Positions 1-17,537 of a stretch of 64,000 nt of DNA are shown here, piece by piece. A program made the position numbers and the translations under genes. Every line of letters starts with the position of its first letter. Position 1 is the first letter of the stretch. This DNA comes from a plasmid: sequence record NZ_CP092111.1; one strand, 5' to 3'. Under the pieces are notes generated by a model that did not search any database, was not told the origin of the DNA, and saw nothing but the letters and a program-made list of their open reading frames with translations.

Positions 1-151
1 CATCAGTACCTTTTAATCCATTTAAAATTTTTAAAAAGCGAAAATAAGATAACAAAACATCTTCTATTTCTTCCACATTGTCCAAGGTCAGTTTTTGAAT
101 TATTTTTCCCATCTCCGAAACGGCTTCTTGAGCCATAGCTTGTTTGTTCAT
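1..151 (-). CDS. N-terminal 50 codons of a paralog-family protein; gene runs off the left edge (partial)
   Basis: Reverse complement gives ATG at 149-151 then MNKQAMAQEAVSEMGKIIQKLTLDNVEEIEDVLLSYFRF..., near-identical to the N-terminus of the 13255-14283 protein (MNRQNIAQEAVCEMGKIIQKLTLDNVEEIEGEL...). RBS-like AGAGGGGA lies upstream on the - strand. Confidence 0.6.
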   Translation of the reverse strand, partial: MNKQAMAQEAVSEMGKIIQKLTLDNVEEIEDVLLSYFRFLKILNGLKGTD

Positions 152-261
152 AAACATCCCCTCTAATCTAATTGATTTATCTATTATATTAAGAATACCG
201 TATTGGTTATTAGGTGCGGTACCTTATTCAGGAATGAACAGAAAAGAAAGTTTTTAAAAAC

Positions 262-369
262 ATTTAATTATTAGTTCCTAAATGTTATAATTAATGACGA
301 AAGGAGGGAAACAGCCGGCATAAATGCGCAGCAATCAAAATTTCACACAAAGGAGAGAAGGAATATCTC
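262..369 (+). promoter_or_regulatory. Repeated promoter+leader cassette, copy 1 (extended -10 TGTTATAAT, GAAAGGAGG box, conserved leader ...CCGGCATAAATGCGCAGCAATCAAAATTTCACACAAAGGAGA) ahead of the methyltransferase gene
   Basis: Near-identical cassette also at 2051-2189 and 4777-4909. Contains TTAGTTCCTAAATGTTATAAT and a conserved ~45-nt 3' leader that ends at the RBS. Confidence 0.55.
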
Positions 370-2025
370 ATGGAGATAAAATATAAAGTTTTACACCTTT
401 TTTGCGGGATTGGCGGTGGCGCATTAGGATTTGACAATGCAAAAGGGGAATATAGAGGGGTTAAGGGCAAATTTGAAACTATTTGTGGCATTGATGTAGA
501 TCCTGAAGCATGCGAAGATTTTCGAAATTTAACCGGGCGAAGAATTGAAAAAATGGATCTCTTCGATAGAGAACAATATATACAATTTCATGGACAGGAG
601 CCCCCAGCTGGGTGGAAAGAGGTTACTCCAAAAATGTTAAGGGATACGGTGCATGAGATACCGGACGTTGTGTTTACAAGTCCGCCGTGTAAAGGATTTA
701 GTGGCCTGCTTCCTGAGAAGTCCGCAAAAACACAAAAATACCAGGCGTTAAACAAATTAACAGTCAGAAGTATCAAGCTAACGCTAGAGGCTTTTCAGGA
801 CGATTTGCCGGCGCTTATCCTACTTGAAAATGTTCCCCGTATTGTGAGCCGCGGAAGAGCATTGCTGCGTGAAATTAAACAGCAACTAGAGTTTTTTGGC
901 TATGTAATTAATGAAGACAAAGATAATTACCATGATTGCGGGGAAATAGGTGGGCTGGCGCAACACAGAAAAAGATTCTTATTGATTGCCAGAAATCCAA
1001 ATAAATTAGATTCATTTGTTTATCAGCCTCCCAAACAACCAATGAAAACAATAGGTGATGTAATTGGTCCGTTGCCTTTGCCTGGAGACAAACGATTTGG
1101 CAAGATTCATGCTTTGCCAAATTTGCAATGGAAAACATGGGTGCGTCTTGCCCTTATTCCGGCTGGCGGCGACTGGCGGGATTTAGAAAAAATAGATTGG
1201 AAAAAGTACCGAATTGGATATTTACCAAGAGCCGGCTGTGGTAAAGTAGCTGAATGGGATAAACCATGTGGAACTATAACCGGGGCCGCAGGTGTAAGTC
1301 AAAGTAATAGCACAACTGCAATATCAGATCCGCGGACAGGGTTTAAGTTATCGACTCATCAGGCAATATACAGGGTTCAAAAATGGGAAGATGCTGGCCG
1401 CACTGTTACCGGGGCTATGAGGCCCAATAATGGCGCTTTATGTGTAAATGATCCGCGGTTGCCTATAAGAAAAAATCGGCATGCTGCCGTTTATCAAGTG
1501 GTTAAATGGGAGCAAACGGGGCCTTGTGTGACGGGAACAAGATTTGGGAGTGGAGCTCCCGCAATTTCCGATCCGCGGTTGGATTGTAAGCCCCGAGCTG
1601 GTACGATGGGGGTTCAACGGTGGGATAAACCTTCAAAAACCGTTACCGGGGCAAACGATGTTCATGCAGGAACTTCAGCCGTCGCAGATCCGCGCATTCC
1701 GGAAGATAATGAGACGGGTGTATTTATTATCATATCTGAAGATGGAACGTGGCACAGGCCACTAACAACCTTAGAACTTGCTGTTTTACAAGGACTCCCT
1801 ACGACCTTACCAGACGGAAGACCTCTTATTCTTGCAGGGAAAAGTGATGCAAGATGGAGGGAAAGGATCGGGAATATGGTTCCGGTAGCTGCCGCACAAG
1901 CAATCGCAGAAACCATGCTTAGAACCATGCTTGCTCAAGAAGTAGGCGAATGGCTTATGTCAGCTGAAGATATTTGGGTTGTTCCTCTGAAAAGAGAAAA
2001 TGAAGTTTCTTTTCGGCAATCTTAG
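370..2025 (+). CDS. DNA (cytosine-5)-methyltransferase, orphan, with four tandem ~40-aa repeats in the target-recognition region
   Basis: Motif I FCGIGGG, PC motif SPPCKGFS, ENV motif LLENVP, motif VIII QHRKRF, motif IX RPLTTLELAVLQGLP, motif X IGNMVPV. Between VIII and IX there are four periodic units (W[ED]K/xxxTVTG...DPR; the nt repeat GATCCGCGG recurs at ~120-nt spacing, 1250-1700). No restriction-endonuclease partner is adjacent. Confidence 0.85.
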   Translation: MEIKYKVLHLFCGIGGGALGFDNAKGEYRGVKGKFETICGIDVDPEACEDFRNLTGRRIEKMDLFDREQYIQFHGQEPPAGWKEVTPKMLRDTVHEIPDVVFTSPPCKGFSGLLPEKSAKTQKYQALNKLTVRSIKLTLEAFQDDLPALILLENVPRIVSRGRALLREIKQQLEFFGYVINEDKDNYHDCGEIGGLAQHRKRFLLIARNPNKLDSFVYQPPKQPMKTIGDVIGPLPLPGDKRFGKIHALPNLQWKTWVRLALIPAGGDWRDLEKIDWKKYRIGYLPRAGCGKVAEWDKPCGTITGAAGVSQSNSTTAISDPRTGFKLSTHQAIYRVQKWEDAGRTVTGAMRPNNGALCVNDPRLPIRKNRHAAVYQVVKWEQTGPCVTGTRFGSGAPAISDPRLDCKPRAGTMGVQRWDKPSKTVTGANDVHAGTSAVADPRIPEDNETGVFIIISEDGTWHRPLTTLELAVLQGLPTTLPDGRPLILAGKSDARWRERIGNMVPVAAAQAIAETMLRTMLAQEVGEWLMSAEDIWVVPLKRENEVSFRQS

Positions 2026-2050
2026 AGGGTAGTCAAATCGAAATTTTCAA

Positions 2051-2189
2051 AAAAAATATATTGAATTATTAGTTTTCAATTGTTATAATAAAAACGAAAG
2101 GAGGAAAGAAAAAACTGGATCAGCTGGTAAATAAAAATCAGCCGGCATAAAGCGTAGCAATCAAAATTTCATACAAAAGGAGATTTAAA
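2051..2189 (+). promoter_or_regulatory. Repeated promoter+leader cassette, copy 2
   Basis: TTGAAT-N17-TGTTATAAT, then AAACGAAAGGAGG and the leader ...CAGCCGGCATAAAGCGTAGCAATCAAAATTTCATACAAAAGGAGA directly before the ATG at 2190. Confidence 0.55.
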
Positions 2190-2537
2190 ATGGAAAAGGT
2201 CAAGGTGACAGAAATCCAGTTAACAAGGCTAGAAGGTAGGTTTGTTACGGAGGAAGATAAGGTGGCCGTAGATACTTGGGAAAAGGCAGAACGAGTTCTA
2301 AGAGCGTGGGCTCTTACGGCTCCGAGAAATGGCGCTTATGACAAGGTGAATTTTCATATTAAGTGGGAAGATGGCCATGAATACTCAGGACGTTTTAATT
2401 TGAAAGCGCAGCATTACAATTTGCGTAAGATCCCGCATTTAGCCAACCATGTAAGACGGGATCTCTGGTATTTATTTGAACAATTAGAGCTAGAAGAAGC
2501 GAAGGAAATGCTGGATAAAAGCCAAATTGGAGCATAA
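2190..2537 (+). CDS. hypothetical protein (115 aa)
   Basis: ORF directly downstream of cassette copy 2, with RBS AAAAGGAGA. No recognisable motif. Confidence 0.5.
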   Translation: MEKVKVTEIQLTRLEGRFVTEEDKVAVDTWEKAERVLRAWALTAPRNGAYDKVNFHIKWEDGHEYSGRFNLKAQHYNLRKIPHLANHVRRDLWYLFEQLELEEAKEMLDKSQIGA

Positions 2538-2601
2538 GAGGGATACCCCTCTTTGCTCTCCTCAATCTTTAAAAAGGTTAAAAATAATTGGAGGGATTAA
2601 G

Positions 2602-2979
2602 ATGGAAATGACAAACCAAGAAAAACTTGATTTAATTAACAGCCTGGAGATCGTTGACGTTGATATGGACTGTGAAGGACTTATATATGCTCATGTTGAA
2701 TATTCTCCTGAAAACCTTGCTATATTGGGAAAAGTAGTTCCCAATGTAGAGGATTATTTGGACGATTATGGAGACCCAGAACATGAAGGGGAAGTATTTG
2801 ATATTTCATGGGCCGCGTTTGAATATGCAAAAGCTGATACTTTTCAACGTGAGCAAGGAAAATTCGCGATTTTTTCAAAAGAGGAAGTCATGGATATGTA
2901 TGTGGAAGAACGAGAGAAGCGCCTAAATTTAGAAAGTCGATATCAAAAATTGAAGCGTCAAATTGAGGCTGTTGGGTAA
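2602..2979 (+). CDS. small highly acidic protein (125 aa); possible DNA-mimic/anti-restriction type (speculative)
   Basis: RBS GGAGGG 6 nt before the ATG at 2602. Very D/E-rich sequence (DVDMDCEGL..., EDYLDDYGDPEHEGE). Sits in the leading-region-like block next to the orphan MTase. Confidence 0.45.
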   Translation: MEMTNQEKLDLINSLEIVDVDMDCEGLIYAHVEYSPENLAILGKVVPNVEDYLDDYGDPEHEGEVFDISWAAFEYAKADTFQREQGKFAIFSKEEVMDMYVEEREKRLNLESRYQKLKRQIEAVG

Positions 2980-3064
2980 AAGTTTACCAGCCGCGGATTA
3001 TGGAGTTTTAACCTCATGTAAGGAGGAGAATGAGTGACGATTTACCGTTCTGAGAGGTGTCAGG

Positions 3065-3523
3065 ATGAAGCACATCATAAAGTCATTGGAGAAGGCCTAT
3101 AGGCTATACAAACAGCCGCATAAGATTGGCGATCTCATAGAATTTCAACAAAAACAATGGATTATTATAGGCATTGAAGCTGTTTCGATTGACTTAAATA
3201 AACTGAGGGTTATTTACACAGTTCAAAACGCCGAAGAGGTATACGCGTATCAGCCACCTATTTCAGACAGCGGGAAAACAGTCGAGATAATAGCTCGAGT
3301 TAGAACCGGAAAAGAGGCTATTTTAGAAAAAATACAGGTTGGTCGCTTAGTTTGGATTGATAATAAGCCATATCAATCGGTTGGGTTTATAGATATAGAT
3401 ATTGAATTCACTGATGTTGTCATTACGTTTCTAGGGCGACCAGTTCGCCCTATTCCGATAAAGGAAGTAAGGGCAAAGGTGCTAAACGAGCGAAAGAAAA
3501 AGCTGAATTTACAAGTCTTGTAG
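3065..3523 (+). CDS. hypothetical protein (152 aa)
   Basis: ORF with AGGTG RBS region. No recognisable motif. Confidence 0.45.
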   Translation: MKHIIKSLEKAYRLYKQPHKIGDLIEFQQKQWIIIGIEAVSIDLNKLRVIYTVQNAEEVYAYQPPISDSGKTVEIIARVRTGKEAILEKIQVGRLVWIDNKPYQSVGFIDIDIEFTDVVITFLGRPVRPIPIKEVRAKVLNERKKKLNLQVL

Positions 3524-3607
3524 GGATGGTCGGTCGAAACGTAGGGGACTTCAGGTGGTTGATCATTTGAAATATGAGAATTACTATGTCATATCAGGAG
3601 GAAATTT

Positions 3608-4288
3608 ATGGCCAGGTTTGCTTTACATCCTAAAACAAATGAAAAAATATCTATAGAGGATTGGGAGTTATATCATAAAGAGGAAACACCCATATGCATT
3701 ATTTGTGGACATAATTTATATGTTAGAGCAAACAGTTCCCCTGGTTCTTCAGCTCACTTTGCTCACTATCCTGGATCTAATTGTCCATCAATTCAATATA
3801 ATCGAGAAAAATATGATAGTCTCCAGCCGGTTGAAAAAGACTATCAGAATGCTAAAAAGTTAAAAAAGCATTTGATCAATAACATGTGGCCAGTTTATCA
3901 AAAATGCAAAAGCATATTTGGTCAAGGGTTTAGACAAAAAGATTTTCAAAAAATGATTTTAAAAGCGTCTGAAAGAAGTATTTGGTTCTATAAAGGTATG
4001 ACACTAAAATATTTACCGTATGTTCTGTTAGTAAACTATGGTGTTTTTCAAAAAGAGGACCATCGAAAAAATAAAGTTTATTTTGTATTTGATTCTAAAC
4101 TATCAAACTATGAAGATCTGTGGATTAAGCCAAAAATAAAACAAAAAATGTGGAAGGTATACCCAGAGGAAGGTCAAATTGAGGAAGTCGAGATTGATTT
4201 CGATACTTCTTCTTTGTCACCTGAATATTTTTTGTTTTGGGCCACAGGTTTACAAGGAAAAAAAGAAAATGAATTCTTAGATTGGTAG
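3608..4288 (+). CDS. CoiA-like (competence protein CoiA N-terminal zinc-finger type) family protein
   Basis: N-terminal CIICGHNLYVRANSSPGSSAHFAHYPGSNC matches the CoiA-like CxxC...HFAH...C signature. RBS AGGAGG upstream. Confidence 0.5.
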   Translation: MARFALHPKTNEKISIEDWELYHKEETPICIICGHNLYVRANSSPGSSAHFAHYPGSNCPSIQYNREKYDSLQPVEKDYQNAKKLKKHLINNMWPVYQKCKSIFGQGFRQKDFQKMILKASERSIWFYKGMTLKYLPYVLLVNYGVFQKEDHRKNKVYFVFDSKLSNYEDLWIKPKIKQKMWKVYPEEGQIEEVEIDFDTSSLSPEYFLFWATGLQGKKENEFLDW

Positions 4289-4303
4289 CTAAGGAGGTGA
4301 AAA

Positions 4304-4495
4304 ATGTTAGTGGATGAATATATCAGCTTTTTAGAAAAAGCCAAAGAAAATGCACATGGAATGAGTGCTTATCGGATATTCAGCGATTTAAAAATGGCCA
4401 AAGAACTTCAATCCAAAGGACAAAAGGAGCTTCTAGTGATTGATCCAAAAAAAGAAATCGCGGCGGTCTTTTCTCCGATTAACAAAAATCGATAA
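4304..4495 (+). CDS. hypothetical small protein (63 aa)
   Basis: RBS AAGGAGGTG 7 nt upstream of the ATG. Confidence 0.4.
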   Translation: MLVDEYISFLEKAKENAHGMSAYRIFSDLKMAKELQSKGQKELLVIDPKKEIAAVFSPINKNR

Positions 4496-4499
4496 CACT

Positions 4500-4770
4500 T
4501 TGCATTTACGGCCGACTATAAGAGCGTAATAGAAGATGGATTGAAACCGGCCCCGCCGCGTGCGTCAGCAGCAGGAACAATCTGGCGGGATCCCGGCGAT
4601 CGCTGAAAAAACGCGAGGCGTTCATGGCCGTATACAGAAGCGTGGTAGCTGAAGATGAACGGAAACCGGTGCTGATCGGAGAGGAGCCGGTTTTTTATGG
4701 CCAGGAATGCTCTGCCGCGGTCGTCAGCAGCAGGGTGTTCCCCGCCGTTTCAGAGAAAAGATTTTTAAAA
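4500..4770. repeat. GC-rich composite hairpin repeat locus (B-type subfamily), ~1.2 units
   Basis: ~65 % GC block in AT-rich surroundings. Shares GATCGCTGAAAAAACGCGAGGCGTTCATGG...GAAGCGTGGTAGCTGAAGATGAACGG...GCCGGTTTTTTATGGCCAGGAA with the loci at 11105-11450 and 11935-12300. Confidence 0.7.
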
Positions 4771-4776
4771 AAACCT

Positions 4777-4909
4777 ATTGAAATATTAGTTTCTAATTGT
4801 TATAATGTAATCAAGGAAGGGAGGTAAGAACAAAAACGGTTAGCTTGGTAAATCAAACTACCGGCATACGCGTAGCGATCAAAATTTCACACAAAAGGAG
4901 ACATGTCGA
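4777..4909 (+). promoter_or_regulatory. Repeated promoter+leader cassette, copy 3 (ahead of radC-like)
   Basis: ATTGAAATATTAGTTTCTAATTGTTATAAT, then GGAAGGGAGG and the leader ...CCGGCATACGCGTAGCGATCAAAATTTCACACAAAAGGAGA before the ATG at 4910. Confidence 0.55.
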
Positions 4910-5359
4910 ATGGAACCTATTTTCGAAATTATCAGCCTCAAACAAGAAAAAAAAGAATCAGATTTGATAGGAGCTTTTGAACAGGTTGTAGATGCTGAAG
5001 CCCTTGCGAACGTGGTTAAATACTACATCCAGAATGAAGATCGTGAGGTTTTCTTAGTTATCATTTATAACAACAAGTTGAGAATAACAGCAATTCATCG
5101 ATGCAGCATTGGGGCGCTAAATGCGGCGATTGTTACTCCGAGAGAAGTGTTTAAAGCAGCGATATTGAACAATGCGGCAGCGATTGCAGTAGCTCACAAC
5201 CACCCCAGTTCTGATCCTACAGCAAGCAAGGAGGATATCGAAGTAACAAAGCGGCTTCACCAAGCCGGGGACATCCTCGGCATTGAATTGCTGGATCATA
5301 TCATTGTAGCTGCACACACTGACCGATACGTAAGCCTTAGAGAAAAAGGGATAATATAA
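4910..5359 (+). CDS. radC: RadC-like JAB-domain protein (copy 1)
   Basis: JAB/MPN signature HNHPSSDPTASKEDIEVTKRL...ELLDHIIV. Paralog at 42208-42663. Confidence 0.8.
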   Translation: MEPIFEIISLKQEKKESDLIGAFEQVVDAEALANVVKYYIQNEDREVFLVIIYNNKLRITAIHRCSIGALNAAIVTPREVFKAAILNNAAAIAVAHNHPSSDPTASKEDIEVTKRLHQAGDILGIELLDHIIVAAHTDRYVSLREKGII

Positions 5360-5361
5360 AA

Positions 5362-5384
5362 GAAGGGGGGCTCCCCCCCCTTCT
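5362..5384. terminator. G/C-perfect hairpin immediately after radC-like stop
   Basis: GAAGGGGGGCTCCCCCCCCTTC. No T-tract on + strand but TTTT follows on the - strand reading; possibly bidirectional or a stabiliser hairpin. Confidence 0.35.
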
Positions 5385-5525
5385 GCAAAAGAAAAAAATG
5401 ATAAAGAGCAGCAAAATTGAATTTCGTTTCCTGAATTCGAATAAGAAAACCTTTTGAATAGGGGCTACTTCCTGTATAATTGATATGCACCTTCGTTTTG
5501 TGTGAACGATGGTTGCTACGCGAAG

Positions 5526-5557
5526 GCCCCGACTGATCCTCGGGGCTGTTTTTTTGT
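5526..5557 (+). terminator. rho-independent terminator
   Basis: GCCCCGA-ctgatcc-TCGGGGC followed by TGTTTTTTT. Confidence 0.65.
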
Positions 5558-5609
5558 CCTCATATTGAAAAATGTGCTTTTTAAAACAAAAAAAGGGAGA
5601 TGTTTTTAA

Positions 5610-5996
5610 ATGGAATTTCAATATTTGAGTCGAGAGCATAAGCAGGATTTTCTTGAAATGAGGCGGAATATTCCTGAATATTACCGTTTTAATAAGGAGT
5701 TTCTATCGGTGCTTTATTTAATCTCAGGAAATGAGGAATTAAAACAGAAAGTTGAGCCTTATTTTAATGGGAACAGCGGTATGTTTGATACGGAAAAAAT
5801 GTTTGAAGAGCAAGATTTTTCAGCGGGATTAAGCATATTGGCAAAACTGGCCGTCAATCTATTCAATGCAAATGAAAAAATTAATCCGTTGCAGCTTATG
5901 ATTCTGGATGATGAAAATTTTGAGTTAGCTATGAATGCGATTATATTAAGAAGACAAGGAATTTCAACAGAATATAAATTAAGTCAAAAAAATTAG
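5610..5996 (+). CDS. hypothetical protein (128 aa)
   Basis: ORF with RBS AAAGGGAGA. Confidence 0.45.
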   Translation: MEFQYLSREHKQDFLEMRRNIPEYYRFNKEFLSVLYLISGNEELKQKVEPYFNGNSGMFDTEKMFEEQDFSAGLSILAKLAVNLFNANEKINPLQLMILDDENFELAMNAIILRRQGISTEYKLSQKN

Positions 5997-6001
5997 TGTA
6001 G

Positions 6002-6781
6002 GTGAATGATTTGAAAGGCATCTTTTTATTATCCGTTTCTTTATTTGAAGGGCAGCTTCAGGAGGCCCAAAATGTAGCACAATCATCCGGAGGTCTGGGC
6101 GCAGATCTTAGCCACTTCATCATGTTTGAATACAAGTTACCTAGTTCATTGGAGCCGATCCTTTCAAAATCGGATAATGATGTGTTATCAGCTGAACAAC
6201 TTAGAATCAGTATAGAAGCGAGGGATCACCTTGACTCTATAATTGATAAACTCAAAAAGGAATATCCAAGATCGAGGGAAAGCTATGGTTTGAATCGCTC
6301 TTCTCTTATGAGGGATATTCTCAAGCAATTTATTTTAAAGCGACAAGATCTCGAAAAGAGGGAGGTTCACCATTCGTCTTTTTCGTTCGAAGCAGATAAG
6401 ATTTCGTTTTTGCAAAGTGTTCTCCCATTCAAGGAGAGAGATCGGACTATTGAGCACTTTATTCTTAATTCTTATGCCCCCTCTGAAACAGAACCTCCAG
6501 AGTCTCACAAGCCAAAGAACATGAGCCAGATAAGAATAAAAATGGATGTGAGAGCATTTGAAAAGCTGGATAATATTGTTGACCAGTTTAAAGGAAAAGG
6601 TCTGACGAGAGCAGATGTAATGCGTCATGTTGTTGATCAACTTATAAAAGAATTATCTACTACGGACAATGTTAAAGCCTTTACGGAGGAAAAATTAGAT
6701 GAGGCTGTCCGGAACTTCAGAGAGGTACACGGGGCAGATAGACTAAAGGAAAAATTAACTGAATATGACAGACGGCAATAA
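6002..6781 (+). CDS. hypothetical protein (259 aa) with two ribbon-helix-helix-like segments
   Basis: GTG start. Segments RSRESYGLNRSSLMRDILKQFI and GLTRADVMRHVVDQLIKEL resemble RHH/CopG-type DNA-binding motifs (weak). Confidence 0.4.
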   Translation: MNDLKGIFLLSVSLFEGQLQEAQNVAQSSGGLGADLSHFIMFEYKLPSSLEPILSKSDNDVLSAEQLRISIEARDHLDSIIDKLKKEYPRSRESYGLNRSSLMRDILKQFILKRQDLEKREVHHSSFSFEADKISFLQSVLPFKERDRTIEHFILNSYAPSETEPPESHKPKNMSQIRIKMDVRAFEKLDNIVDQFKGKGLTRADVMRHVVDQLIKELSTTDNVKAFTEEKLDEAVRNFREVHGADRLKEKLTEYDRRQ

Positions 6782-6822
6782 GTAAGCAGCTTTCCGGATC
6801 CAGCTATGGAAAGGAGCCTTTT

Positions 6823-7035
6823 ATGAATATGTGTGGAATAACTGACTGGGGAAGTGCATTTTATGCTTTCGTTGAGACGACTCAAAAGCATAATTTACCC
6901 TTCCCGGAGGATGCAGCTGATTGGAGTACGGCCAAGTTGATAGCCGAAATAGAGAGGATAAACAAGGGGGAGATGGGGTTGTTAAAGAGATCCAGGCGAC
7001 TGAGGCAATCCAACAGGAAGGAGAGAAAAGCATAA
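6823..7035 (+). CDS. hypothetical small protein (70 aa)
   Basis: RBS GGAAAGGAG upstream. Confidence 0.4.
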
Positions 7036-7036
7036 A

Positions 7037-7492
7037 ATGAAAAAGTTACTTACTGCTGTATGCACTCTTCTTCTAATTTCAATTGGAGCTTATGTAACTG
7101 GAAATTCGCCAATAGATTTACTATCGCATCACCAAAACACAACTGCAGCTGAAGAAAATTCAACCTCATATGATCAAAAGATCTATTTTCCTGCTGATAA
7201 GTACCCTGAAACCGCTAAACACATAAAAACGGCCATTAAAGAAGGCCATTCGAAAATCTGTACAATTGATCGAGATGGTGCCGATGAAAACCGCGAGGAA
7301 TCTTTGAAGGATGTCCCAACCAAAAAAGGGTATGATCGTGATGAATGGCCAATGGCAATGTGTCAGGAGGGCGGAGCCGGTGCCGATATTGAATACATAG
7401 AGCCATCAGATAACCGCGGGGCGGGATCCTGGGTTTCTCATCAGTTAGATGATTTTCCAGACGGAACTAGAGTATTATTTGTTGTGAAATAG
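7037..7492 (+). CDS. secreted NucA/NucB-family DNase (copy 1)
   Basis: Signal peptide, then [101 protein letters not shown]. The B. subtilis NucA/NucB sequence as I recall it has the same pattern. Confidence 0.8.
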
Positions 7493-7611
7493 ATGGAAGA
7501 GCAGCTGCTGGCATTTTATTTCGTTCGTGAGTGATCAAAGATCGGAAGATGGCCATAATTTCTTGTTCGTGTTTGTTGAATCCAGAATCACTAAAAACAA
7601 AGGAGATGCTT

Positions 7612-8778
7612 ATGGAATTTATAAAGAGCCTCTTATTCATCGTCTATGCGATCTTGCTACATGTGTATTCAAAAGATTCAGCCAGCAAACTTCAACGGCA
7701 TGTCTATAATTTTTTCATCCTTGTCGCTATTGTATGGTTGATTACCTTTAGTTTTTTTCCGTATTGGAAAATGGTTATTACTTTTAGTTTTTTGGTCGTT
7801 AATATCTATGCAGTCAAGACAATATTAACAAAAATCAAAACTGGGAAATTTGTTGCCCCACCGGCTTGGATTCCCTTGATGACAGTCGCTGGCATTTGTA
7901 CAGCAGGCATCATTATTCCAAGTTGGGAATCAACGCTAGTCACTGTGGCGTTTGGTGTTTTTCTATTCAGCATTCTTATCGTTTTAGAAAAGGTGCAGCA
8001 GCAGAATGAGATTTACGAAAATCGAAAATCCACTTCCGAGCTAAATGACCGGGAAAAAATAGTAGAACGGATTAAAAAAGAAAACATCATCCTTGAGCAA
8101 AAAAATTCTCATTCACCTAATCTTTATACTTTTGTTCATGAAATAAATGTGGCTGACAACAGTGTACTTCGCAACTATATTATTGAGCCCCTTCATCCAG
8201 AAACCAGCATCAATAGACAAGCACATTCCTTAGCGCATGAGTTAGGGCATTATTATAACTCCATCGAGAGAAAACGTTCCTTCCATAGTTTTATTTTAGA
8301 TTGTCGTAAAGCGAAAAGACTGAAACCGATTTGCGGATTATTTGTTTTATACGATGAATGGAGTGCCTGGAATCGCGCAAAGCAAATCTGCCTTGAAGAA
8401 GGTGTAGACATTAGCTTTTTTCATTTTTCGAGAAAAACAGCTTTTTCAACTTATGTTAAAGCATACTGGGAGTCCATCATAAGGCCATTTAAAACATTGA
8501 TAGGTACGTATATTTTTAGCGTGGCAATCGTGCTGTTTTCTGTGTTGCTAACTGACGCAGACATTCACCTTCCTTTTAAATTAGATGCTTTGACAAATTC
8601 TATTGCAATTACAACTGATAGGACAGGAGCAGTAAATTTCATTTTCTTCATCATCATGCAGATTCGCTTTTTGAGATGGGTGTTTGGACTGTTTTTTAAA
8701 AAATCTGTTACAGACTATCAATATGCACCAGAAGATGGTTTTGTAACAACGGGAAATGCAAAAAAGATTAAGGACTAA
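7612..8778 (+). CDS. polytopic membrane protein (~388 aa), unknown function
   Basis: RBS AAAGGAG 6 nt before the ATG at 7612. At least 6 hydrophobic helices. Contains an HELGH stretch. Confidence 0.5.
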   Translation: MEFIKSLLFIVYAILLHVYSKDSASKLQRHVYNFFILVAIVWLITFSFFPYWKMVITFSFLVVNIYAVKTILTKIKTGKFVAPPAWIPLMTVAGICTAGIIIPSWESTLVTVAFGVFLFSILIVLEKVQQQNEIYENRKSTSELNDREKIVERIKKENIILEQKNSHSPNLYTFVHEINVADNSVLRNYIIEPLHPETSINRQAHSLAHELGHYYNSIERKRSFHSFILDCRKAKRLKPICGLFVLYDEWSAWNRAKQICLEEGVDISFFHFSRKTAFSTYVKAYWESIIRPFKTLIGTYIFSVAIVLFSVLLTDADIHLPFKLDALTNSIAITTDRTGAVNFIFFIIMQIRFLRWVFGLFFKKSVTDYQYAPEDGFVTTGNAKKIKD

Positions 8779-8970
8779 GAGCAATTCCTCATGATAACAT
8801 AAAGGAGAATCGGACAGTCGAAAGGCAGCCGTTTTTCTTAGCCATAGGTCGCTTGCTGCGGGCGCCAGTTAAATGATTGAGAAACCTGGACATAATTAGA
8901 GGAGTTTGCACTTAGCAAGGCCTAAGATTGAATGACAGCCTTTGGGCTGGACCTTGAAAGGAGGTGGTTA

Positions 8971-9355
8971 TTTGCGTATCTCCAGTGAAATTTATGTAGG
9001 TGAACCTAAAATACCGATATGGGTTAAATTCGTTATTATTTGGAATATCATTATGATTACAGTTGGCGTGATTGTATATCAGATTGCACCTTTTAATCTT
9101 GGCCGATATATTCTGATCTATATTCTTCTTTGGTGGTTTACTGGGTTCCCATTTGTCGCTGAAAAATTTATGCATGGTTTCTCTAAAGAAGAAACACGCA
9201 TTGACTCGATGTATAAGAAGAAGCTGATTAAACGTCATATCGGTGGTGAAGTTCTTTCATATGATCGGAAAGAAAAAACATATAAGGTACTAGACAGAGG
9301 GAAATTTCTGAAGGTGAAATATTATAAAGGACACTTGCTTGTGGAAGAAGATTAA
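8971..9355 (+). CDS. small membrane protein (~128 aa)
   Basis: TTG start after GAAAGGAGGTGG. Three predicted TM helices. Confidence 0.45.
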
Positions 9356-9412
9356 GTAAGGGTGATCCGTCGTCTTTCTTTGAATCAATTACTAATAACA
9401 AAGGAGAATATC

Positions 9413-9988
9413 ATGGAATTCACAATTTCAGAGCGTCCAAATAATATCTTTTACGGCGATATATGTAAGATTAACGGACAAGGTTGCCTGATCTTTGGTT
9501 TTGGCAAGTCAAAGGCTGCCCAAATAGCTTCCTCCGACAATATGATTGCTTATGATATGGCATGTCTTACAAAAGATGATGAGGGAACTTTATATGGTCA
9601 CTTTGAAACCGAAATTCGAGCCAAAGGAATTAGTGATCCAATAAAAGAAAGAATTGAGATTAAACACTTTTTAAGAATGCTTGATCAGGAAGAAACAAAC
9701 AAATTGCTTTGGATCAACCCTCATTTAAAGGAACTTGATAGACTAATTGAAATACCTTATGAGAACTTCATTGAAATTTCTCAATTCAATATTACTTTTA
9801 CAGCCCCAGCTGATTTTCCATTTAGACCCGAAGGATTGCCTGAAATTGAAAGAGATCCTCAAAAGAGAATAGAACACTTTATCAAGCTGTCAAAGGATTC
9901 AAATGTCCGTACTTTTGTGGTACCGTGGAGAGAAACTGTTGAGGAAAAAGCTGTAATGATTAAAGAGGCTTTTGGTTTGCAGCCTTAA
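9413..9988 (+). CDS. hypothetical protein (191 aa)
   Basis: RBS AAAGGAGAA 6 nt upstream of the ATG at 9413. Confidence 0.45.
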   Translation: MEFTISERPNNIFYGDICKINGQGCLIFGFGKSKAAQIASSDNMIAYDMACLTKDDEGTLYGHFETEIRAKGISDPIKERIEIKHFLRMLDQEETNKLLWINPHLKELDRLIEIPYENFIEISQFNITFTAPADFPFRPEGLPEIERDPQKRIEHFIKLSKDSNVRTFVVPWRETVEEKAVMIKEAFGLQP

Positions 9989-10074
9989 AGGATTGGAGGG
10001 ATTCTGTCGCTTGTCCAAAAAAAGTAAGAACGCCCCAGACTCCGACATCTAGGCGTTCCTACCGTTGATTGGAA

Positions 10075-10190
10075 TAAAAGCCGACTCCCTTACAGGAGCT
10101 ATTCTATTGCCGATCGGAGATGTTAGCAGCATCTTCGATCTTTTTGTATTACAGTATACTCTTATTGTATCAACGAACCTTTAAGCATGT
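10075..10190. repeat. Left arm of long inverted repeat bounding the hfq cassette
   Basis: AAAGCCGACTCCCTTACAGGAGCTATTCTATTGCCGATCGGAGATGTTAGCAGCATCTTCGATCTTTTT...TTGTATCAACGAA is the reverse complement (≈90 % identity) of 11575-11745. Confidence 0.7.
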
Positions 10191-10318
10191 CTATATTTAT
10201 TACAGGTGTTTTCTGCTGATTGATGAGAAAATGCTGTACGTTCATAGCCGTCTATGGAAGCGTGGTAGGAGTTGATTTCCTTAGAAATGTGTTACTATCT
10301 TGGGTGAAGGTGAGGATT

Positions 10319-10753
10319 ATGAAACAAGTAAATTTATATATAAGGACTCATCAAGTAAGGAATTTAGAAAATGTAAGAATAAAATACATAGGCTGTCTGT
10401 TACTAGAATATAAGGGGAAACGTAAGTACGTGTTCATTGATAATGTGGGGGAACGTGATCAAAGGGCTTCAATGTTGAGGTTGGTATGTAGTGGACTGAA
10501 AATGTTGAAAGAACCTTGTGAGATACTGGTTTTGACGCTAAATGATATTGAAAAGAAGTGGAAGAAATATAGTGACTTATGGAATGAAGTAAATGAGCGT
10601 GTAGTTGCTGGAGGGCATGATTTAAGTTTTAAGGTCTGTAAAAATTCTGATGAGGATACAGGAGAAGTATTCAAAATATTTAAGAGTAAGTTAGATCGTT
10701 ATAAGAGGTCATATAAAAACAGGCTCAAGCTTCATTTGATGCATAGCAAATAA
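10319..10753 (+). CDS. hypothetical protein (~144 aa)
   Basis: ATG at 10319 (MKQVNLY...) after GGTGAAGGTGAGG. Lies inside the IR-bounded cassette. Confidence 0.4.
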   Translation: MKQVNLYIRTHQVRNLENVRIKYIGCLLLEYKGKRKYVFIDNVGERDQRASMLRLVCSGLKMLKEPCEILVLTLNDIEKKWKKYSDLWNEVNERVVAGGHDLSFKVCKNSDEDTGEVFKIFKSKLDRYKRSYKNRLKLHLMHSK

Positions 10754-10852
10754 ATTCTATGTTAAGATAAAAAAAACAAAAGAGTTAAGTTTTCCATGGA
10801 AGAAGAGATGTTTTTTCATCTTGCCGATTCTATTTTTTTGTGAGGTGATTTT

Positions 10853-11104
10853 ATGGCGACTGCAGAAAGGCAAGCAAAGCAATCAGAAGTAAAAAAGAAA
10901 CCTTCTCAACATAGTGTTCAGAATCAATATTTACAAAGGCATGTGGGTCATACGCTTGTATGCTTGTTAAATTCTAAAACTAAAGTGAAAGGAAAGCTTC
11001 TGGAATATGATACATACACACTGTTACTGGAAACGCCAGAAGGTGAAGAGTTTTTAGTGTTTAAACACCATATTGAGCTTATTAAAAAGATCAAGGCGGA
11101 ATAA
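10853..11104 (+). CDS. hfq: Hfq-like Sm-fold RNA chaperone paralog (83 aa, with ~25-aa N-terminal extension)
   Basis: QNQYLQRHVGHTLVCLLNSKTKVKGKLLEYDTYTLLLETPEGEEFLVFKHHIELIK matches the Hfq Sm1/Sm2 pattern (N..L......V.vfLlNG..l.G.i..fD.ft.lLe.....q.lvyKHaIs). Confidence 0.7.
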   Translation: MATAERQAKQSEVKKKPSQHSVQNQYLQRHVGHTLVCLLNSKTKVKGKLLEYDTYTLLLETPEGEEFLVFKHHIELIKKIKAE

Positions 11105-11450
11105 AAGCCGTTTTTTTATAGTTAGTAAATGGCTCTCCGCGGGCGACAGCTCCAGGAGTCTGCCGGTGGCCACCGGCCATCGATGAAAAAACGCCAGGCG
11201 TTCACGGTCCGCCTTGTGGAAGCGTGGCAGCTGAATATGAAGAACAGCCGGCTTTTTTTGTGGCCAGGAAGGGCTCTCTTCGGGCGACAGTTGCAGGAAT
11301 TCCGCCGGTGCCCCCGGTGATCGATGAGAAAACGCGGGGCGTTTACGGTTGCCTGCGAAGTTCAGCAGCTGAAGGTGAAAGGAAGACGGGAATACCCCGC
11401 TAGAGGCCGCCGCCAGTAAGGAAAGACCCCTGCCTCACATGAGACAGGGG
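11105..11450. repeat. GC-rich composite hairpin repeat locus (B-type), ~1.5 units
   Basis: GATGAAAAAACGCCAGGCGTTCACGG...GCCGGCTTTTTTTGTGGCCAGGAAGG..., ~65 % GC. Confidence 0.7.
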
Positions 11451-11574
11451 TCTTAAATTTCCTCAGCCGGCTGGTTTTTAGGTTCCTCGTTTTGTTCTTC
11501 TATTGGTACACTTTTTGGGGTGATTTTTGGAACATCAAATACGTCTAGCTTCTGGACATGCTGTGATTTTGTTG

Positions 11575-11745
11575 ATACAATCAATGTGTAAATGAATACA
11601 ATGTATGTAAATGAATACAATGTATGTAAATGAGTATAATGTATACAAAAGAGACTATAATAAAGAAAAAGATCGAAGATGCGGCTAACATCTCCGATCG
11701 GCAATAGGAGGCTCCGGTAAGGGAGTTCGGCTTTTTCCAAAGTTT
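11575..11745. repeat. Right arm of long inverted repeat, including a 3x tandem 20-bp repeat (AATGAATACAATGTATGTAA)
   Basis: The reverse complement matches 10075-10190. The internal 20-mer x3 lies at 11583-11645. Confidence 0.7.
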
Positions 11746-11934
11746 AATTTAAAGTGAGAACGTCATGATTGGTAGTCGGGGCGTCTTACTTTTTTTGTTC
11801 GAGAAACTATGGGCAAGCGTCAAAATCCCAACAATCAGGATTCCAAATTGAAACATCAATCCAAGTGCGCTTTCTACTGCCATATTCTCACTTCCCCTCT
11901 TTCTGGAGGTGACTCCTATCCTTTTAGGTGGGGG

Positions 11935-12300
11935 TTATCAATGCTCGCCAGATGAAGGAACTGACGGCGCCCTTGGCGATTGATGAGAAAACACTAGGCG
12001 TTCAGGGCCTGCCTGCAGAAGAGAACAGCTGAATGTGAACGAGAGCCGGTGCCCGTTGAAGGGCAGCCGGCTTTTTTATGGCCAAGAACGCCCTGCCGCG
12101 GTCGCCTGCTGAAGGAATCTGCCGGTGCCCCCGGTGATCGATGAGAAAACGCGGGGGGGTCAAAGTCCGTCTGTAGAAGCGAATAGCTGAATATGAACGA
12201 GAGCCGGTGCCCGCTGGAGGGCAGCCGGCTTTTTTGTGGCCAGGAACGCCTCGCCGTGGTCGCCAGCAGCCAGAAATCTGCTCGGTATATGCGTGTCAAT
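11935..12300. repeat. GC-rich composite hairpin repeat locus (B-type), ~1.7 units
   Basis: GATGAGAAAACACTAGGCGTTCAGGG...GCCGGCTTTTTTATGGCCAAGAACG... repeated twice. Confidence 0.7.
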
Positions 12301-12458
12301 AGGTGCGGGGGTGACTCACATCGCTTGCCCCGTATCTATTGGATAAGTCGACTAATCATAATGTTTGTAAAAAAAGAGCGAATGACGGGGATTCACCTTT
12401 GATAATGTCAACTGAAAATAAAAGGTAAAGTGTCTTTACCATTGAATTATAAAATGAG

Positions 12459-13025
12459 GTGATGAACGCAATGATAAACGATAAGGAACATATGAATGAG
12501 TACGGCTATTTTGCTAAGGATGTTGCAGCCGATTTGAGTGTGACATCTTCAACACTAAGGCGGTGGTCCCTGGAGTTAGAGAAGCATGGATATGTATTTG
12601 AAAGAAATGAAAAGGAGCAGAGGATTTATTTTGAACGCGATTTTAAAACGTTCAGAGAACTTAAAAGACTTTTATCAAACTCTGTCCCGTTTGTAGACGC
12701 AATAAAAGCTGTTGCAGTAACCAAAACTGACGAGACAAACGCGTCAAGAACGCAAGGCGTTTTTTTCGATAGGCGTTTATCAGAGCAACAATTTAGAGAG
12801 ATTATAAACGAAGAAGTAAAGGCAGCTATGGCGGAAGAGAGAGAAATGATGTTTCGAGCATTTGAAAAGAAGTTAGATAACATTATCGAACGTCGGGACC
12901 GTTCCCTAATGCATGAGATTCGAAAAAATAGAGAAAGGCAGCTTCTTGAAACGGCAGCTACTGTGGAGACTCCAAGTAAGTCTGCAGAGAAAAAGTCTTT
13001 TTGGAGGCGTATATTTTACAAATAA
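12459..13025 (+). CDS. MerR-like N-terminal HTH protein with coiled-coil C-terminus (paralog A)
   Basis: YGYFAKDVAADLSVTSSTLRRWSLELEKHGYVFERN resembles a MerR-family HTH. Paralog at 15139-15699 (~55 % identity). Confidence 0.55.
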   Translation: MMNAMINDKEHMNEYGYFAKDVAADLSVTSSTLRRWSLELEKHGYVFERNEKEQRIYFERDFKTFRELKRLLSNSVPFVDAIKAVAVTKTDETNASRTQGVFFDRRLSEQQFREIINEEVKAAMAEEREMMFRAFEKKLDNIIERRDRSLMHEIRKNRERQLLETAATVETPSKSAEKKSFWRRIFYK

Positions 13026-13044
13026 GAGTATGGTCAAGAAAAAA

Positions 13045-13066
13045 AGCCCCAGAGGGCTTTTAATCT
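13045..13066. terminator. bidirectional terminator between convergent genes
   Basis: AAAAAAAGCCC-CAGA-GGGCTTTT. Confidence 0.45.
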
Positions 13067-13254
13067 TCAGTGAAATTTTTAGATGAGAATGCTTGCCCGA
13101 ATTGTGGCAACTTCTTTTTGGGTGATTTCTTTTGATTCTTTGTTGTTTTTGATGATTTTTTATTTACTTGGTTATCAGTTGTTTTAGTTTTTGGAGAGGA
13201 AGACTCCATACCAGCATTTTTTACGTATTCATGCAGTACGTGGCGTACAAAGCC

Positions 13255-14283
13255 TCATTCAAATACTAAAGACTTTGCGGTTTGAACGAGGCTGCTTATC
13301 CCTCTACTATCTGTCAAAGTGAATGGTTTTTCATACTTTTTTGCAAATTCTTTTGCTTTTTCTGCTGTGGGATGATTGATGTTTAATTTCATAGTGATTA
13401 ACATGTCACAACTTTTAACCATACTTTCAAGCCGTTTGGTATTTTCATTGCCGTAAGCATGGATAAGCACTCCTCCGACACTCGTTATTGCTTTTTCAAA
13501 TTCACTCGTTCTGGTACCACCTAACACTAGTACCTTTTTTCCGTTCAATTCATTTGTTATTGTGGTATCTAATTTAGGATTTTTAGTTTTATAATGGGAA
13601 GAAGGAGAAGGTGGAGCATGTTTGATTTCATCCGTATTATGTTTCCATATCACTTTGAACACATCTACATTGTCACTGTAATAAGCTATATCAACAACTG
13701 AACCGATCTCAAGATCCTCCCTTGTTCTTGTATCGTCATTGATAAGAAAAGTATGTGGTGCATCATTATATTTTATGGATTTGATTTTTCCATCGTTATC
13801 TAAGTATTCAGAGGCAACTAGCATAGAATCGCGATTTGATAGAACACAATAATTTAATTGAATTCGGTTTGTTTGCTTGCGTTTTTTGGCCTTTTCTATT
13901 AACTCAAAATAAAATTTTTCGTTTCCTAAATGGACTGCTGAAATTAAATCTCCATCTTCAAATTGTTGTTTTCGTATAATGTTTTCGGGAACATATAAAT
14001 TAATCTCTTCTATAATTCCTCCTTTTAAAAGTCTTTTAAATTCATAACAATTTATCTGTTTTGCTTTTTCGTCTGTCTCTTCTAGTTGAATATGTTCCAC
14101 ATCATTTTTTGAGCATGGTTCTAATTCATGTGAAACCGATACTTTTAAAGCAGCTAAGCTCTTAATAAAATGAAAATAGGTGGATAATTCACCTTCAATT
14201 TCTTCCACGTTGTCCAGTGTCAGTTTTTGAATTATCTTTCCCATCTCACAAACGGCTTCCTGAGCTATATTTTGTCTGTTCAT
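13255..14283 (-). CDS. paralog-family protein (342 aa) with conserved C-terminal ~100-aa domain (GG..T..FEKAI..GG.LIHAYGNE...LESM...CDMLITMKLNINHPT); unknown function
   Basis: Full-length copy. Two further copies are cut by the window edges (1-151 and 63482-64000). RBS on the - strand. Confidence 0.6.
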   Translation of the reverse strand: MNRQNIAQEAVCEMGKIIQKLTLDNVEEIEGELSTYFHFIKSLAALKVSVSHELEPCSKNDVEHIQLEETDEKAKQINCYEFKRLLKGGIIEEINLYVPENIIRKQQFEDGDLISAVHLGNEKFYFELIEKAKKRKQTNRIQLNYCVLSNRDSMLVASEYLDNDGKIKSIKYNDAPHTFLINDDTRTREDLEIGSVVDIAYYSDNVDVFKVIWKHNTDEIKHAPPSPSSHYKTKNPKLDTTITNELNGKKVLVLGGTRTSEFEKAITSVGGVLIHAYGNENTKRLESMVKSCDMLITMKLNINHPTAEKAKEFAKKYEKPFTLTDSRGISSLVQTAKSLVFE

Positions 14284-14491
14284 GGCTATCCCCTCTCTTT
14301 AATTTAATAACTTCACTTTAAGAATACAGTATCTACATGAGATATGATACTTCATAAATGAAGAGAAGCCCTTGATAAAGGGCAATGAATCTTTAATGAA
14401 TAAGGTCGTGATAAATGATAAAAATAATTATATAATTGAACTGCACACAATCATGGCCAATGGTGGTCAGACCTTTGGCCATATAGAATAC

Positions 14492-14686
14492 TTATCTTTT
14501 TTTAAAGGAAAAACTGATTTTGAACTCAGTTTCTCCTTTTTTTATTTGTTTTAATGTCTGTGCTAAGTATAAAAGCATTACTAAAAACAAAAGGATAAAC
14601 ACAGCCCACCAGGGCATATCTGATACTCTAGATAACAGCGATTCTATGAAAATTTGAAAACCATTGAACATTTCTTCACCTCCCAT
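14492..14686 (-). CDS. small membrane protein (64 aa)
   Basis: Strong RBS GGGAGGTGAAG 5 nt before the ATG (- strand). One TM segment WWAVFILLFLVMLLYLA. Confidence 0.4.
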   Translation of the reverse strand: MGGEEMFNGFQIFIESLLSRVSDMPWWAVFILLFLVMLLYLAQTLKQIKKGETEFKISFSFKKR

Positions 14687-15138
14687 AATATTATTATATT
14701 GGTTTTTGAGAAATTCAAAAAAAGAAACCGTTTACTTCCGGATGGGGAAATGTATTTATTTTGAAATAGTCAACTGGTAGTATATATTACAGGGGGGGTG
14801 ATTTGGGGGTGACGAAAGGGGCCTCGAAAGATAAGAATAGATTTACTGAATGGAAAAGCTCTTTTTGCCTATTTATTTTCCTTTTAGACTTAAAGAAGCT
14901 TCCTCTTCCTTCAGAAGCTTTAAATTGGGAGTTGAATAAGCTGAGAACTGAAATCCGTTTGATGCTTGAAAAACATAACGAAATATCAAATGAAAATTAA
15001 GGTGTTTGGTGTGATTAATTTAAAAAAGGGCCATACAGCCGAAGTTAAGATATTTAGTCTTTGGCCCGCTCTTATTTTGGTAAGGAAAGGGTCAAGAAGG
15101 GTTTTATAAGGTGTGAGTGTTCTGAAGAAAAGGGTGAA

Positions 15139-15699: not shown

Positions 15700-15764
15700 C
15701 TCATTTATCTATTCAACCTTATTTTTACTATCCCTTTAAATCCTAATAAAATAGACATATTTGA

Positions 15765-16565: not shown

Positions 16566-16675
16566 AGCCGTCAATTGCATAAAATAAAATATAGACCAGC
16601 AGAAAAAGAGCATATTTAAACCCAATATGCTCTAGTGCTGAACGGAATATAAGTCATCTATAAAGGAGGGATGTA

Positions 16676-17431: not shown

Positions 17432-17537
17432 GGTCTCAAAATTTTGGAATAAAATAGGGTGTTACTGAGGGCGATTGTAGTGCAATTATCTTTTCCTTTT
17501 ACGTATATCCAGTTTAGAGTGGCTTATTTCTTTTGTA

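Follow-up and report, generated by a model that had tools for sequence, protein, structure and literature searches.

A C5 cytosine methyltransferase of a pLS20-type conjugative plasmid with four tandem cassettes that resemble the core of a target recognition domain

An open reading frame at positions 370–2025 of a 64,000-nt stretch of the plasmid record NZ_CP092111.1 (the whole stretch is termed the window) encodes a C5 cytosine DNA methyltransferase (MTase). The catalytic core of this protein (motifs I–VIII and IX–X) is interrupted by an array of four cassettes of about 41 amino acids (aa) each. This raises the question of what the four units do: do they give one enzyme several DNA targets, do they bind DNA loosely, does only one of them work, or are they passive repeats? 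The reading that is favored, by a modest measure, is that of an orphan plasmid enzyme whose alternative cassettes would pair with one catalytic core and provide multispecific protection of incoming plasmid DNA. Coordinates of the features are listed in Table 1.

The assignment of the 551-aa protein to the C5-MTases comes from several sources. There is a match to the Pfam family PF00145 (E = 1e-22, in two pieces with the middle of the profile skipped; stretch 5–216), and TIGR00675 of NCBIfam is matched as well. A copy of the gene on a B. velezensis plasmid (~98% DNA identity) is annotated as WP_017474176.1, and the counterpart gene in NZ_CP116015 is annotated as “DNA cytosine methyltransferase”. 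The AlphaFold2 model displays the two-lobed C5-MTase fold with a predicted local distance difference test (pLDDT) score of >90 in the core. Foldseek matched this model to DNMT1, M.HaeIII (1dct), M.HhaI (2z6q) and DNMT2 with E-values of 1e-10 to 5e-13. Searches of PDB sequences gave no match to the whole protein at E ≤ 0.01 (phmmer) and nothing informative for its C-terminal fragment. Motifs were placed by aligning the family profile to DNMT1, and invariance was judged in 120 homologues. Motifs I, IV, VI, VIII, IX and X are found in canonical order, and residues P106, C107, K108 and G109 of motif IV are invariant in the 120 sequences. The pLDDT score is 73–86 up to about residue 260 and drops to ~58 over P264-AGGDWRDL-272, a signature of the N-terminal part of the target recognition domain (TRD).

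The four repeat cores are at aa positions 290–322, 333–363, 374–403 and 412–442 (nt 1237–1695), between motif VIII (Q198–R202) and motif IX (R463–P477). Each cassette consists of a linker, the pattern Y-x-V-x-x-W-D/E-x-P-x-x-T-V/I-T-G, a variable loop of 12–14 residues, and DPR. The cassette profile was built from the four cores themselves; after iteration the copies score 6e-13 to 5e-17. The DPR codons start at nt 1327, 1450, 1570 and 1687, a spacing of 123, 120 and 117 nt. The cassettes share only ~30%–50% of their amino acids with each other, and Tandem Repeats Finder reported no DNA-level tandem repeat at positions 1000–2100. Because the units are too diverged in DNA, the ~120-nt periodicity is essentially a feature of the protein, together with short conserved nucleotide islands.

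These results bear out the initial annotation of the locus in its main points, i.e. a C5-MTase whose TRD region, between motifs VIII and IX, contains four modules in tandem. Its description of the modules needs to be amended. Of the four units, only 1 and 4 match its W(E/D)K literally, unit 2 having WED and unit 3 WEQ; T(V/I)TG is present in units 1, 2 and 4, with CVTG in unit 3; and the distance from TG to DPR is 12–14 residues, not 15–25. The spacing of about 120 nt that it noted is present in the DPR codons without a tandem repeat in the DNA. The recurring 9-mer, GATCCGCGG, is found at the first three units and is replaced by GATCCGCGC at the fourth, while GATCCGCG is present at all four DPR sites. 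Recurrence of GATCCGCGG as a DNA-level element, e.g. a cluster of SacII sites, was considered and rejected; the 9-mer represents the D-P-R codons. Seven further plus-strand copies of GATCCGCG are present in the window, all within unrelated repeats.

The four DPR junctions (1327–1335, 1450–1458, 1570–1578 and 1687–1695) are coded GAT CCG CG(G/C). In the rest of the gene proline is CCG in 8 of 34 codons and arginine is CGG or CGC in 6 of 35. A homologue from Brevibacillus (L007) has mixed DPR codons, and thus the homogeneity is lineage-specific.

By the alignments described below, the cassettes are diverged copies of the conserved C-terminal core (or half) of the TRD, which contains a conserved T-V/L dipeptide and the loop that reads the major groove. 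This core is present in a single copy in monospecific C5-MTases and in DNMT1. When the profile is aligned to PDB sequences, DNMT1 YGRLEWDGFFSTTVTN falls on a cassette and DNMT1 PGSDWRDL on aa 264–272; hhalign gives the same register. A monospecific bacterial MTase (printed in PMC11954522) has one such segment, VYGRMEWDKPSPTITTQCFGFGNGRFGHP, immediately before motif IX. By BLASTP this segment aligns to unit 1, running on from the catalytic domain, to unit 4, running into motifs IX–X, and to unit 3, and hhalign of the cassette profile with the same enzyme gives E = 3e-5. Against PDB sequences the cassette profile yields a chance match only. The modules thus align to the TRD core of DNMT1 and of the monospecific enzyme, and not to a structural region of a Dcm-type enzyme outside the TRD.

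The monospecific C5-MTases with the arrangement PGGxWRDL ... YGRxxWDxPSxTIT ... HP, and the catalytic domain of eukaryotic DNMT1/MET1, display the same catalytic motifs, N-terminal TRD signature and TRD core. They differ in that one core, ending in HP, is directly followed by motif IX, whereas here there are four cores, each ending in DPR. In mouse DNMT1, TRD loop II (positions 1530–1537) makes base-specific contacts to CpG (PMC6316889). The loop after TVTG probably corresponds to this loop, and the linker before each core probably corresponds to DNMT1 TRD loop I (positions 1501–1516).

The methyltransferase has more than 7260 homologues by protein search. The 120 closest carry 2–9 cassettes each with a spacing of 38–43 aa, and protein length follows 389 + 40.9 × N aa, where N is the cassette number (r = 0.97). 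When 1.84 billion cluster representatives were searched exhaustively with the cassette profile, 514 clusters were obtained at E ≤ 0.001; the largest arrays had 12 matched stretches as counted by the search tool and 11 by the cassette profile. The cassettes lie between the N- and C-terminal catalytic parts in 58 out of 58 full-length representatives (4–11 units by profile). The modal number in the family is 5–6 and arrays of 9–12 occur. Four cassettes are therefore at the low end of the range of 2–12, and not at the upper end of what is found, as had been supposed.

The family is carried by plasmids and phages of Bacillota and Proteobacteria. Members in the Bacillota are found in Bacillus, Brevibacillus, Paenibacillus, Aneurinibacillus, Tumebacillus, Sporomusaceae and Desulforudis. 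In the Proteobacteria there are members in phages of Pseudomonas, Marinobacter, Achromobacter and Sinorhizobium. Two examples are phiCTX orf41 (L010, 2938–4716), annotated as a hypothetical protein, which has five cassettes, and PBC5 gp34 (L011, 2977–5232), which has eight; the original PBC5 record split this gene into orf51–54. A literature search found no published description of the cassette-array family or of its repeats, and the cassette is not represented by any model in Pfam, NCBIfam or PHROGs.

That the cassettes are neutral duplications, or a disordered linker, in an ordinary monospecific Dcm-type methylase is very improbable. The region is a low-confidence coil in the AlphaFold2 model and is rich in Gly, Ala, Ser and Thr, as expected for passive repeats. 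However, over 678 modules the D of DPR is conserved in 100% and the R in 99%, and the regular length of 41 aa is kept in more than 500 clusters. The type-specific conservation across phyla and the lack of type duplicates, shown below, also argue against this explanation.

The 678 cassettes, from 121 proteins, were clustered and fall into discrete types. The protein studied here has the order V-B-C-A, i.e. four different types. The same type is present twice in at most 2 of the 121 proteins (1 in a recount), as compared with 57 expected and a minimum of 44 in 1000 shuffles of the middle units. No cassette has a sibling in its own protein with >70% identity (the best sibling is 50% identical on average), whereas the best match in another protein is on average 88% identical. 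Residues that define the types are concentrated in columns 17–22 and 24–26, the loop after TVTG, and in columns 1, 3, 5 and 12. The entropy of columns 17–22 and 24–26 is 1.9–3.3 bits overall but 0.3–1.2 bits within a type. The linker co-varies with the core downstream of it (62% identity) and not with the core upstream (18%, equal to background); the evolutionary cassette thus begins immediately behind a DPR and ends with the following one.

Some types are confined to the first position, and the closest counterparts of cassette 1 are always the first modules of other proteins. Cassette 3 is 86%–93% identical to modules at positions 2–4 in proteins with 5–9 modules. Type B is found in 98 of the 121 proteins, always once, and type A is last in 108 of its 112 occurrences. 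The order of middle types varies, e.g. BC, CB, HEBDA, FBCELA, MBCRQDA and KICDPA. Types are common to phages of Pseudomonas and Sinorhizobium: unit 2 of phiCTX and unit 3 of PBC5 are near-identical.

This type structure bears on a second explanation, in which the cassettes bind DNA loosely, jointly or interchangeably. Methylation would then occur in very short or degenerate contexts (e.g. CC or SCS) with partial occupancy, and there would be no relation of one cassette to one target. Known enzymes lend some weight to the idea. P. aminophilus JCM7686_0772 and JCM7686_2655, and p31 of Aeromonas phage phiARM81ld and p29 of ARM81mr, are likewise large orphan phage C5-MTases of “relaxed specificity”. 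The Paracoccus prophage enzymes protect several unrelated sites experimentally (PMC3925955), and their Aeromonas phage relatives are also described as having relaxed specificity (PMC5537653). The p31 protein of phiARM81ld has five tandem modules resembling TRD cores, and the low AlphaFold2 confidence of the cassettes would fit flexible, loosely binding loops. However, the Aeromonas phage enzyme, and with it probably its Paracoccus relatives, belongs to another C5-MTase subfamily, with SPDCRHFS as motif IV and ~33-aa modules lacking DPR. A tblastn search with the protein studied here brought up none of these enzymes (no match in the phage search at E ≤ 1e-5), and the Aeromonas modules are marginal with the cassette profile. 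Partial protection at several unrelated sites is also expected of a multispecific enzyme. The strict non-redundancy of types and the strong conservation of the loop within types are not expected of interchangeable cassettes, and loose binding is considered unlikely.

In the phiARM81ld genome (L009, KT898133) the MTase gene is at 25673–27337 (minus strand) and its five tandem ~33-aa modules share a (D/E)xP(A/M)xT core. This could represent another, independent example of an array of TRD cores.

A third explanation starts from the position of type A. Only the last cassette, in the canonical place beside motif IX, would work, and the inner ones would be accessory, with a role in binding DNA or single-stranded DNA, in processivity or in regulation, or would form a recombination reservoir of pseudo-TRDs. 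The nearly universal type A in last place fits this, as does the single core of monospecific enzymes, which is in exactly this position. The N-terminal TRD half, being single-copy, could pair with no more than one core at any moment. Pseudo-TRDs are also said to occur in the multispecific enzymes of phages. On the other hand, the inner cassettes retain the functional signature (W, T-V/I-T-G, G and DPR), and they are 80%–93% identical across proteins that are 50%–60% identical overall, which is beyond expectation for spacers or relics. Furthermore, their type-specific residues are in the loop that reads bases in DNMT1. That only the last cassette works is thus thought quite unlikely.

Evidence that cassettes come and go as units is found in close relatives. 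An allele from B. haynesii (L004, a plasmid-like contig with the same gene order) has 99.0% DNA identity and lacks exactly positions 1450–1569 of the window, which is cassette 3. The segment is bounded by two copies of the 12-nt direct repeat given in Table 1, which are 100% identical and 120 nt apart. The nucleotide homogeneity of the DPR codons provides the microhomology at which this natural 120-nt deletion occurred. In two further relatives (P0004 and P0010) type D replaces type C, and another (P0003) has both C and D. The array has thus evolved in a modular manner: in the sequences of close relatives, modules differ and are gained, lost or exchanged singly.

In the favored reading, that of multispecific protection, one cassette at a time would dock with the common catalytic core on DNA. 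Alternate docking would lead to methylation of several short sequence classes, up to one per cassette. Expressed alongside establishment-type neighbours, the enzyme would shield the conjugative plasmid from several restriction systems of new hosts that are sensitive to cytosine methylation. Cassettes come, go and are swapped through recombination at the junctions that encode DPR, and as a result related plasmids and phages carry different cassette sets. A bolder proposal, which falls somewhat short of an even chance, is that the more than 7000 proteins (more than 500 clusters at 50% identity) represent an unrecognised hyper-modular family. Here a self-contained, DPR-bounded 41-aa cassette would be sufficient for a target, and arrays of up to ~12 would be formed by junction recombination.

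Several observations weigh against the multispecific reading. The register of the DNMT1 TRD loop is weak and local, with a domain independent E-value (i-E) of 370 inside a significant hit and E = 0.02 by hhalign. The pLDDT score is <50 over the whole cassette region (residues 281–441), and a natural two-cassette homologue modelled with a 120-sequence alignment also gives <50, even for the terminal cassette; docking is therefore without structural support. The near-universal types A, B and C could form a fixed structural set instead of independent specificities. The N-terminal TRD half (PAGGDWRDL and ~20 more residues) is present once only, and a cassette may thus not be a self-sufficient TRD, unlike those of SPR-type enzymes. 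Some TRDs of the phage multispecific enzymes are reportedly pseudo (inactive) TRDs. A literature search found no 5-methylcytosine data for this protein or any other family member. With regard to the pLDDT scores, the TRD loop of DNMT3A becomes ordered upon interaction with DNA (PMC6316889); the low scores may reflect similar ordering, or plain failure of the method. It should be noted that the palindromes CCGG, GGCC, GCGC and CGCG are not depleted on the plasmid; this count is too crude (zero-order expectation, GC-rich repeats) to bear on targets.

Enzymes with a comparable arrangement include M.SPRI, M.Phi3TI, M.Rho11sI, M.SPbetaI and M.H2I of temperate Bacillus phages. These are likewise orphan C5-MTases of mobile elements, with tandem modules between motifs VIII and IX and a T-(L/V/I) core in each module. 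Their modules, studied in the Trautner laboratory, are reportedly ~40 aa long and can be removed or added. Multiple TRDs are arrayed in one polypeptide in the Bacillus phage enzymes (PMC12707154), which serve to protect against several restriction systems of the host (PMC12707154, PMC5923457).

The initial annotation likened the plasmid protein to the SPR/phi3T/rho11s type. The comparisons do not support descent from that group: BLASTP shows no significant similarity to M.Phi3TI (best E-value 0.12), and the module regions have no detectable sequence relationship. A tblastn search of the phi3T and SPbeta genomes matched only the catalytic N-terminal part of a second, monospecific phi3T enzyme (26%, E = 2e-7), a similarity generic to C5-MTases. 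The protein thus lies outside the SPR/phi3T/rho11s/SPbeta family by descent while sharing its architecture and logic. There are other differences. The phage TRDs (in the phi3T sequence) are not visibly alike, whereas the cassettes are clearly paralogous, have a regular period of 41 aa and invariably show DPR at the junction. The present family has 2–12 cassettes as compared with 2–4 in the Bacillus phage enzymes, and its N-terminal TRD half is single-copy, unlike theirs. Multispecificity has been demonstrated for the phage enzymes and is here proposed from the sequence.

M.BssHII/M.phiBssHII of Geobacillus stearothermophilus H3 is a multispecific C5-MTase that is not of the SPbeta group and is reported to methylate several (five) GC-rich targets. 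By general description its TRDs are at separated locations, in contrast to the contiguous array found here. M.EcoGIX and M.BceJIV, MTases of plasmid leading regions, differ in being N6-adenine enzymes specific for single strands, with a relaxed SAY context and without a TRD array. The concept is the same, that of an orphan broad-specificity methylase of a conjugative plasmid as an establishment or anti-restriction factor, according to the passage of PMC12707154 in which they are cited.

In the literature, a 2025 review included (PMC12707154), multi-TRD cytosine methylases are regarded as peculiar to a few temperate phages of Bacillus, whose enzymes have two to four modules. If the cassettes are working recognition modules, the strategy would be far wider and more extreme, found in plasmids and phages of several phyla, the classical phage phiCTX included, with up to about a dozen modules, and its origin would be independent of the SPR group. 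The passage of pLS20-type plasmids and many prophages across restriction barriers would likewise be accounted for. A uniform scaffold with hundreds of short cassette types would constitute a library on how C5-MTase loops read DNA, and compact multi-target methylases could be used to make DNA transformable into restrictive hosts. The hyper-modular proposal, if true, would mean a natural combinatorial multi-target anti-restriction system and a readable cassette-to-motif code for C5-MTase specificity.

Table 1. Positions of the methyltransferase gene, its motifs and cassettes, and associated sequence elements in the window (aa numbering is that of the 551-aa protein; HMM, hidden Markov model)
Feature	Position (nt)	Strand	Basis
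Promoter-like element TTTAAT-N17-TGTTATAAT, palindrome between -35 and -10, conserved leader ending in AAAGGAG ribosome-binding site	247..369	+	consensus
C5 cytosine DNA methyltransferase coding sequence, 551 aa	370..2025	+	PF00145, TIGR00675, Foldseek matches
Motif I, S-adenosylmethionine binding, L10-FCGIGGG-17 (FxGxGG loop)	397..420	+	aligned to DNMT1 LDVFSGCGGLSEGF; family-invariant
Motif IV, S104-PPCKGFS-111, catalytic Cys107	679..702	+	aligned to DNMT1 GGPPCQGFSG
Motif VI, E153-N-V155	826..834	+	aligned to DNMT1 LLENV; family-invariant
Motif VIII, Q198-HRKR-202	961..975	+	aligned to DNMT1 AQTRRR; Q198, R200, R202 invariant
Single-copy N-terminal TRD signature, P264-AGGDWRDL-272	1159..1185	+	DNMT1 PGSDWRDL; monospecific MTase PGGTWRDW
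Cassette 1 core, aa 290–322, first-position type, CGKVAEWDKPCGTITGAAGVSQSNSTTAISDPR	1237..1335	+	HMM E = 5e-18
Cassette 2, aa 323–363, type B, linker TGFKLSTHQA + core IYRVQKWEDAGRTVTGAMRPNNGALCVNDPR	1336..1458	+	HMM E = 8e-21
Left copy of 12-nt direct repeat GATCCGCGGTTG, codons D-P-R-L	1450..1461	+	left edge of cassette-3 indel
Cassette 3, aa 364–403, type C, linker LPIRKNRHA + core AVYQVVKWEQTGPCVTGTRFGSGAPAISDPR	1459..1578	+	HMM E = 1e-18
Right copy of 12-nt direct repeat GATCCGCGGTTG	1570..1581	+	right edge of cassette-3 indel
Cassette 4, aa 404–442, type A, near-universal last cassette, linker LDCKPRAG + core TMGVQRWDKPSKTVTGANDVHAGTSAVADPR	1579..1695	+	HMM E = 3e-19
Motif IX, R463-PLTTLELAVLQGLP-477 (RPLTTLE...GLP477)	1756..1800	+	DNMT1 HRVVSVRECARSQGFPD; monospecific MTase RAISLREAALIQTFP
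Motif X, G501-NMVP-505	1870..1884	+	DNMT1 GNAVPPP; G501, N502, V504, P505 invariant

The window encodes a Replic_Relax relaxase (25581–26483), TcpC, a VirB4-like ATPase, a CwlT-like hydrolase, a ParM-like protein and an LPXTG thioester adhesin. This set of conjugation and plasmid genes identifies it as a pLS20-type conjugative plasmid, in agreement with the conjugative element proposed in the initial annotation. The first 12 kb are 98% identical to B. velezensis and B. licheniformis plasmids. The initial annotation also put the methyltransferase gene at the head of the transferred region, a placement that finds no support here; the distance to the relaxase gene is ~25 kb.

Downstream of the methyltransferase gene on the same strand are small genes without assigned function, a RadC/JAB protein gene and a DUF6075 protein gene; in a near-identical plasmid a NucA/NucB nuclease and Hfq are also annotated in this region. 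As in the initial annotation, no restriction endonuclease partner was recognised nearby. By Pfam and NCBIfam no restriction endonuclease family was seen downstream to ~10 kb, or upstream in the 98%-identical plasmid, although many of the neighbours are unannotated small proteins. None was recognised in four homologue contexts either; homologue genes elsewhere are in early, replication or recombination modules of phages. The product of the open reading frame at 3608–4288 (plus strand, 226 aa) displays weak, sub-threshold matches to CoiA_N and to the zinc-ribbon-like DUF7830 and no NCBIfam match. No other neighbour shows any sign of belonging to a nuclease-associated family.

The sequence preceding the methyltransferase gene is one of three near-identical copies (247–369, 2045–2189 and 4762–4909, plus strand; mean column identity 75%). 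They share TTGAAT-N17-TGTTATAAT, a palindrome, ATTAGTTTCTAAT, between the hexamers, and a conserved leader of ~60–100 nt. The element with its leader precedes the methyltransferase gene, the open reading frame at 2190 and the RadC/JAB gene. The copy at 247–369 is a putative sigma-A-like promoter, and the three shared promoter/leader copies suggest a co-regulated, repressor-controlled gene set.

The arrangement is reminiscent of the establishment regulons described for plasmids of the pLS20 family (Val-Calvo et al. 2018, 2021), which are of the same plasmid type and host genus. Establishment genes of that family include C5-MTases, thought to counter host restriction-modification after transfer, and repeated regulatory sequences precede several of its operons (PMC8708921). 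The element found here, of ~125–170 bp, is neither the 400–600-bp GC-rich EGeRS1 nor the EGeRS2 with a TTATCCC operator of the pLS20-family plasmids. The cassette architecture is not mentioned in the papers on pLS20-family establishment.

Other repeats were noted in the window. A GC-rich repeat family (D3, D5, D6 and D11) is found at 4580–4742, 10218–10268, 11113–11340 and 11960–12281, partly intergenic and partly over small called open reading frames. Like EGeRS1, these may have a regulatory role and form structures; an Rfam scan of positions 1–20000 gave no match. A GC-rich unit of 219 nt is repeated in tandem about 3.6 times (79%–95% identity) at 15779–16571, overlapping an open reading frame at 15705–16343 (minus strand) without a Pfam match. 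Iterons, or some other element for plasmid maintenance, are a possible identity for these copies. At 19312–19494, a short way upstream of the conjugation block beginning at 20002, three 37-nt repeats ~73 nt apart contain TGATATCA-N3/4-TGATATCA palindromes and look like operator sites. Lastly, a 155-nt direct repeat (77% identical) is present at 10–164 and 14142–14296. The second copy is over the 5′ end of a DUF2325 gene (13255–14283, minus strand), and in the near-identical plasmid DUF2325 genes are annotated at the corresponding positions flanking the region.

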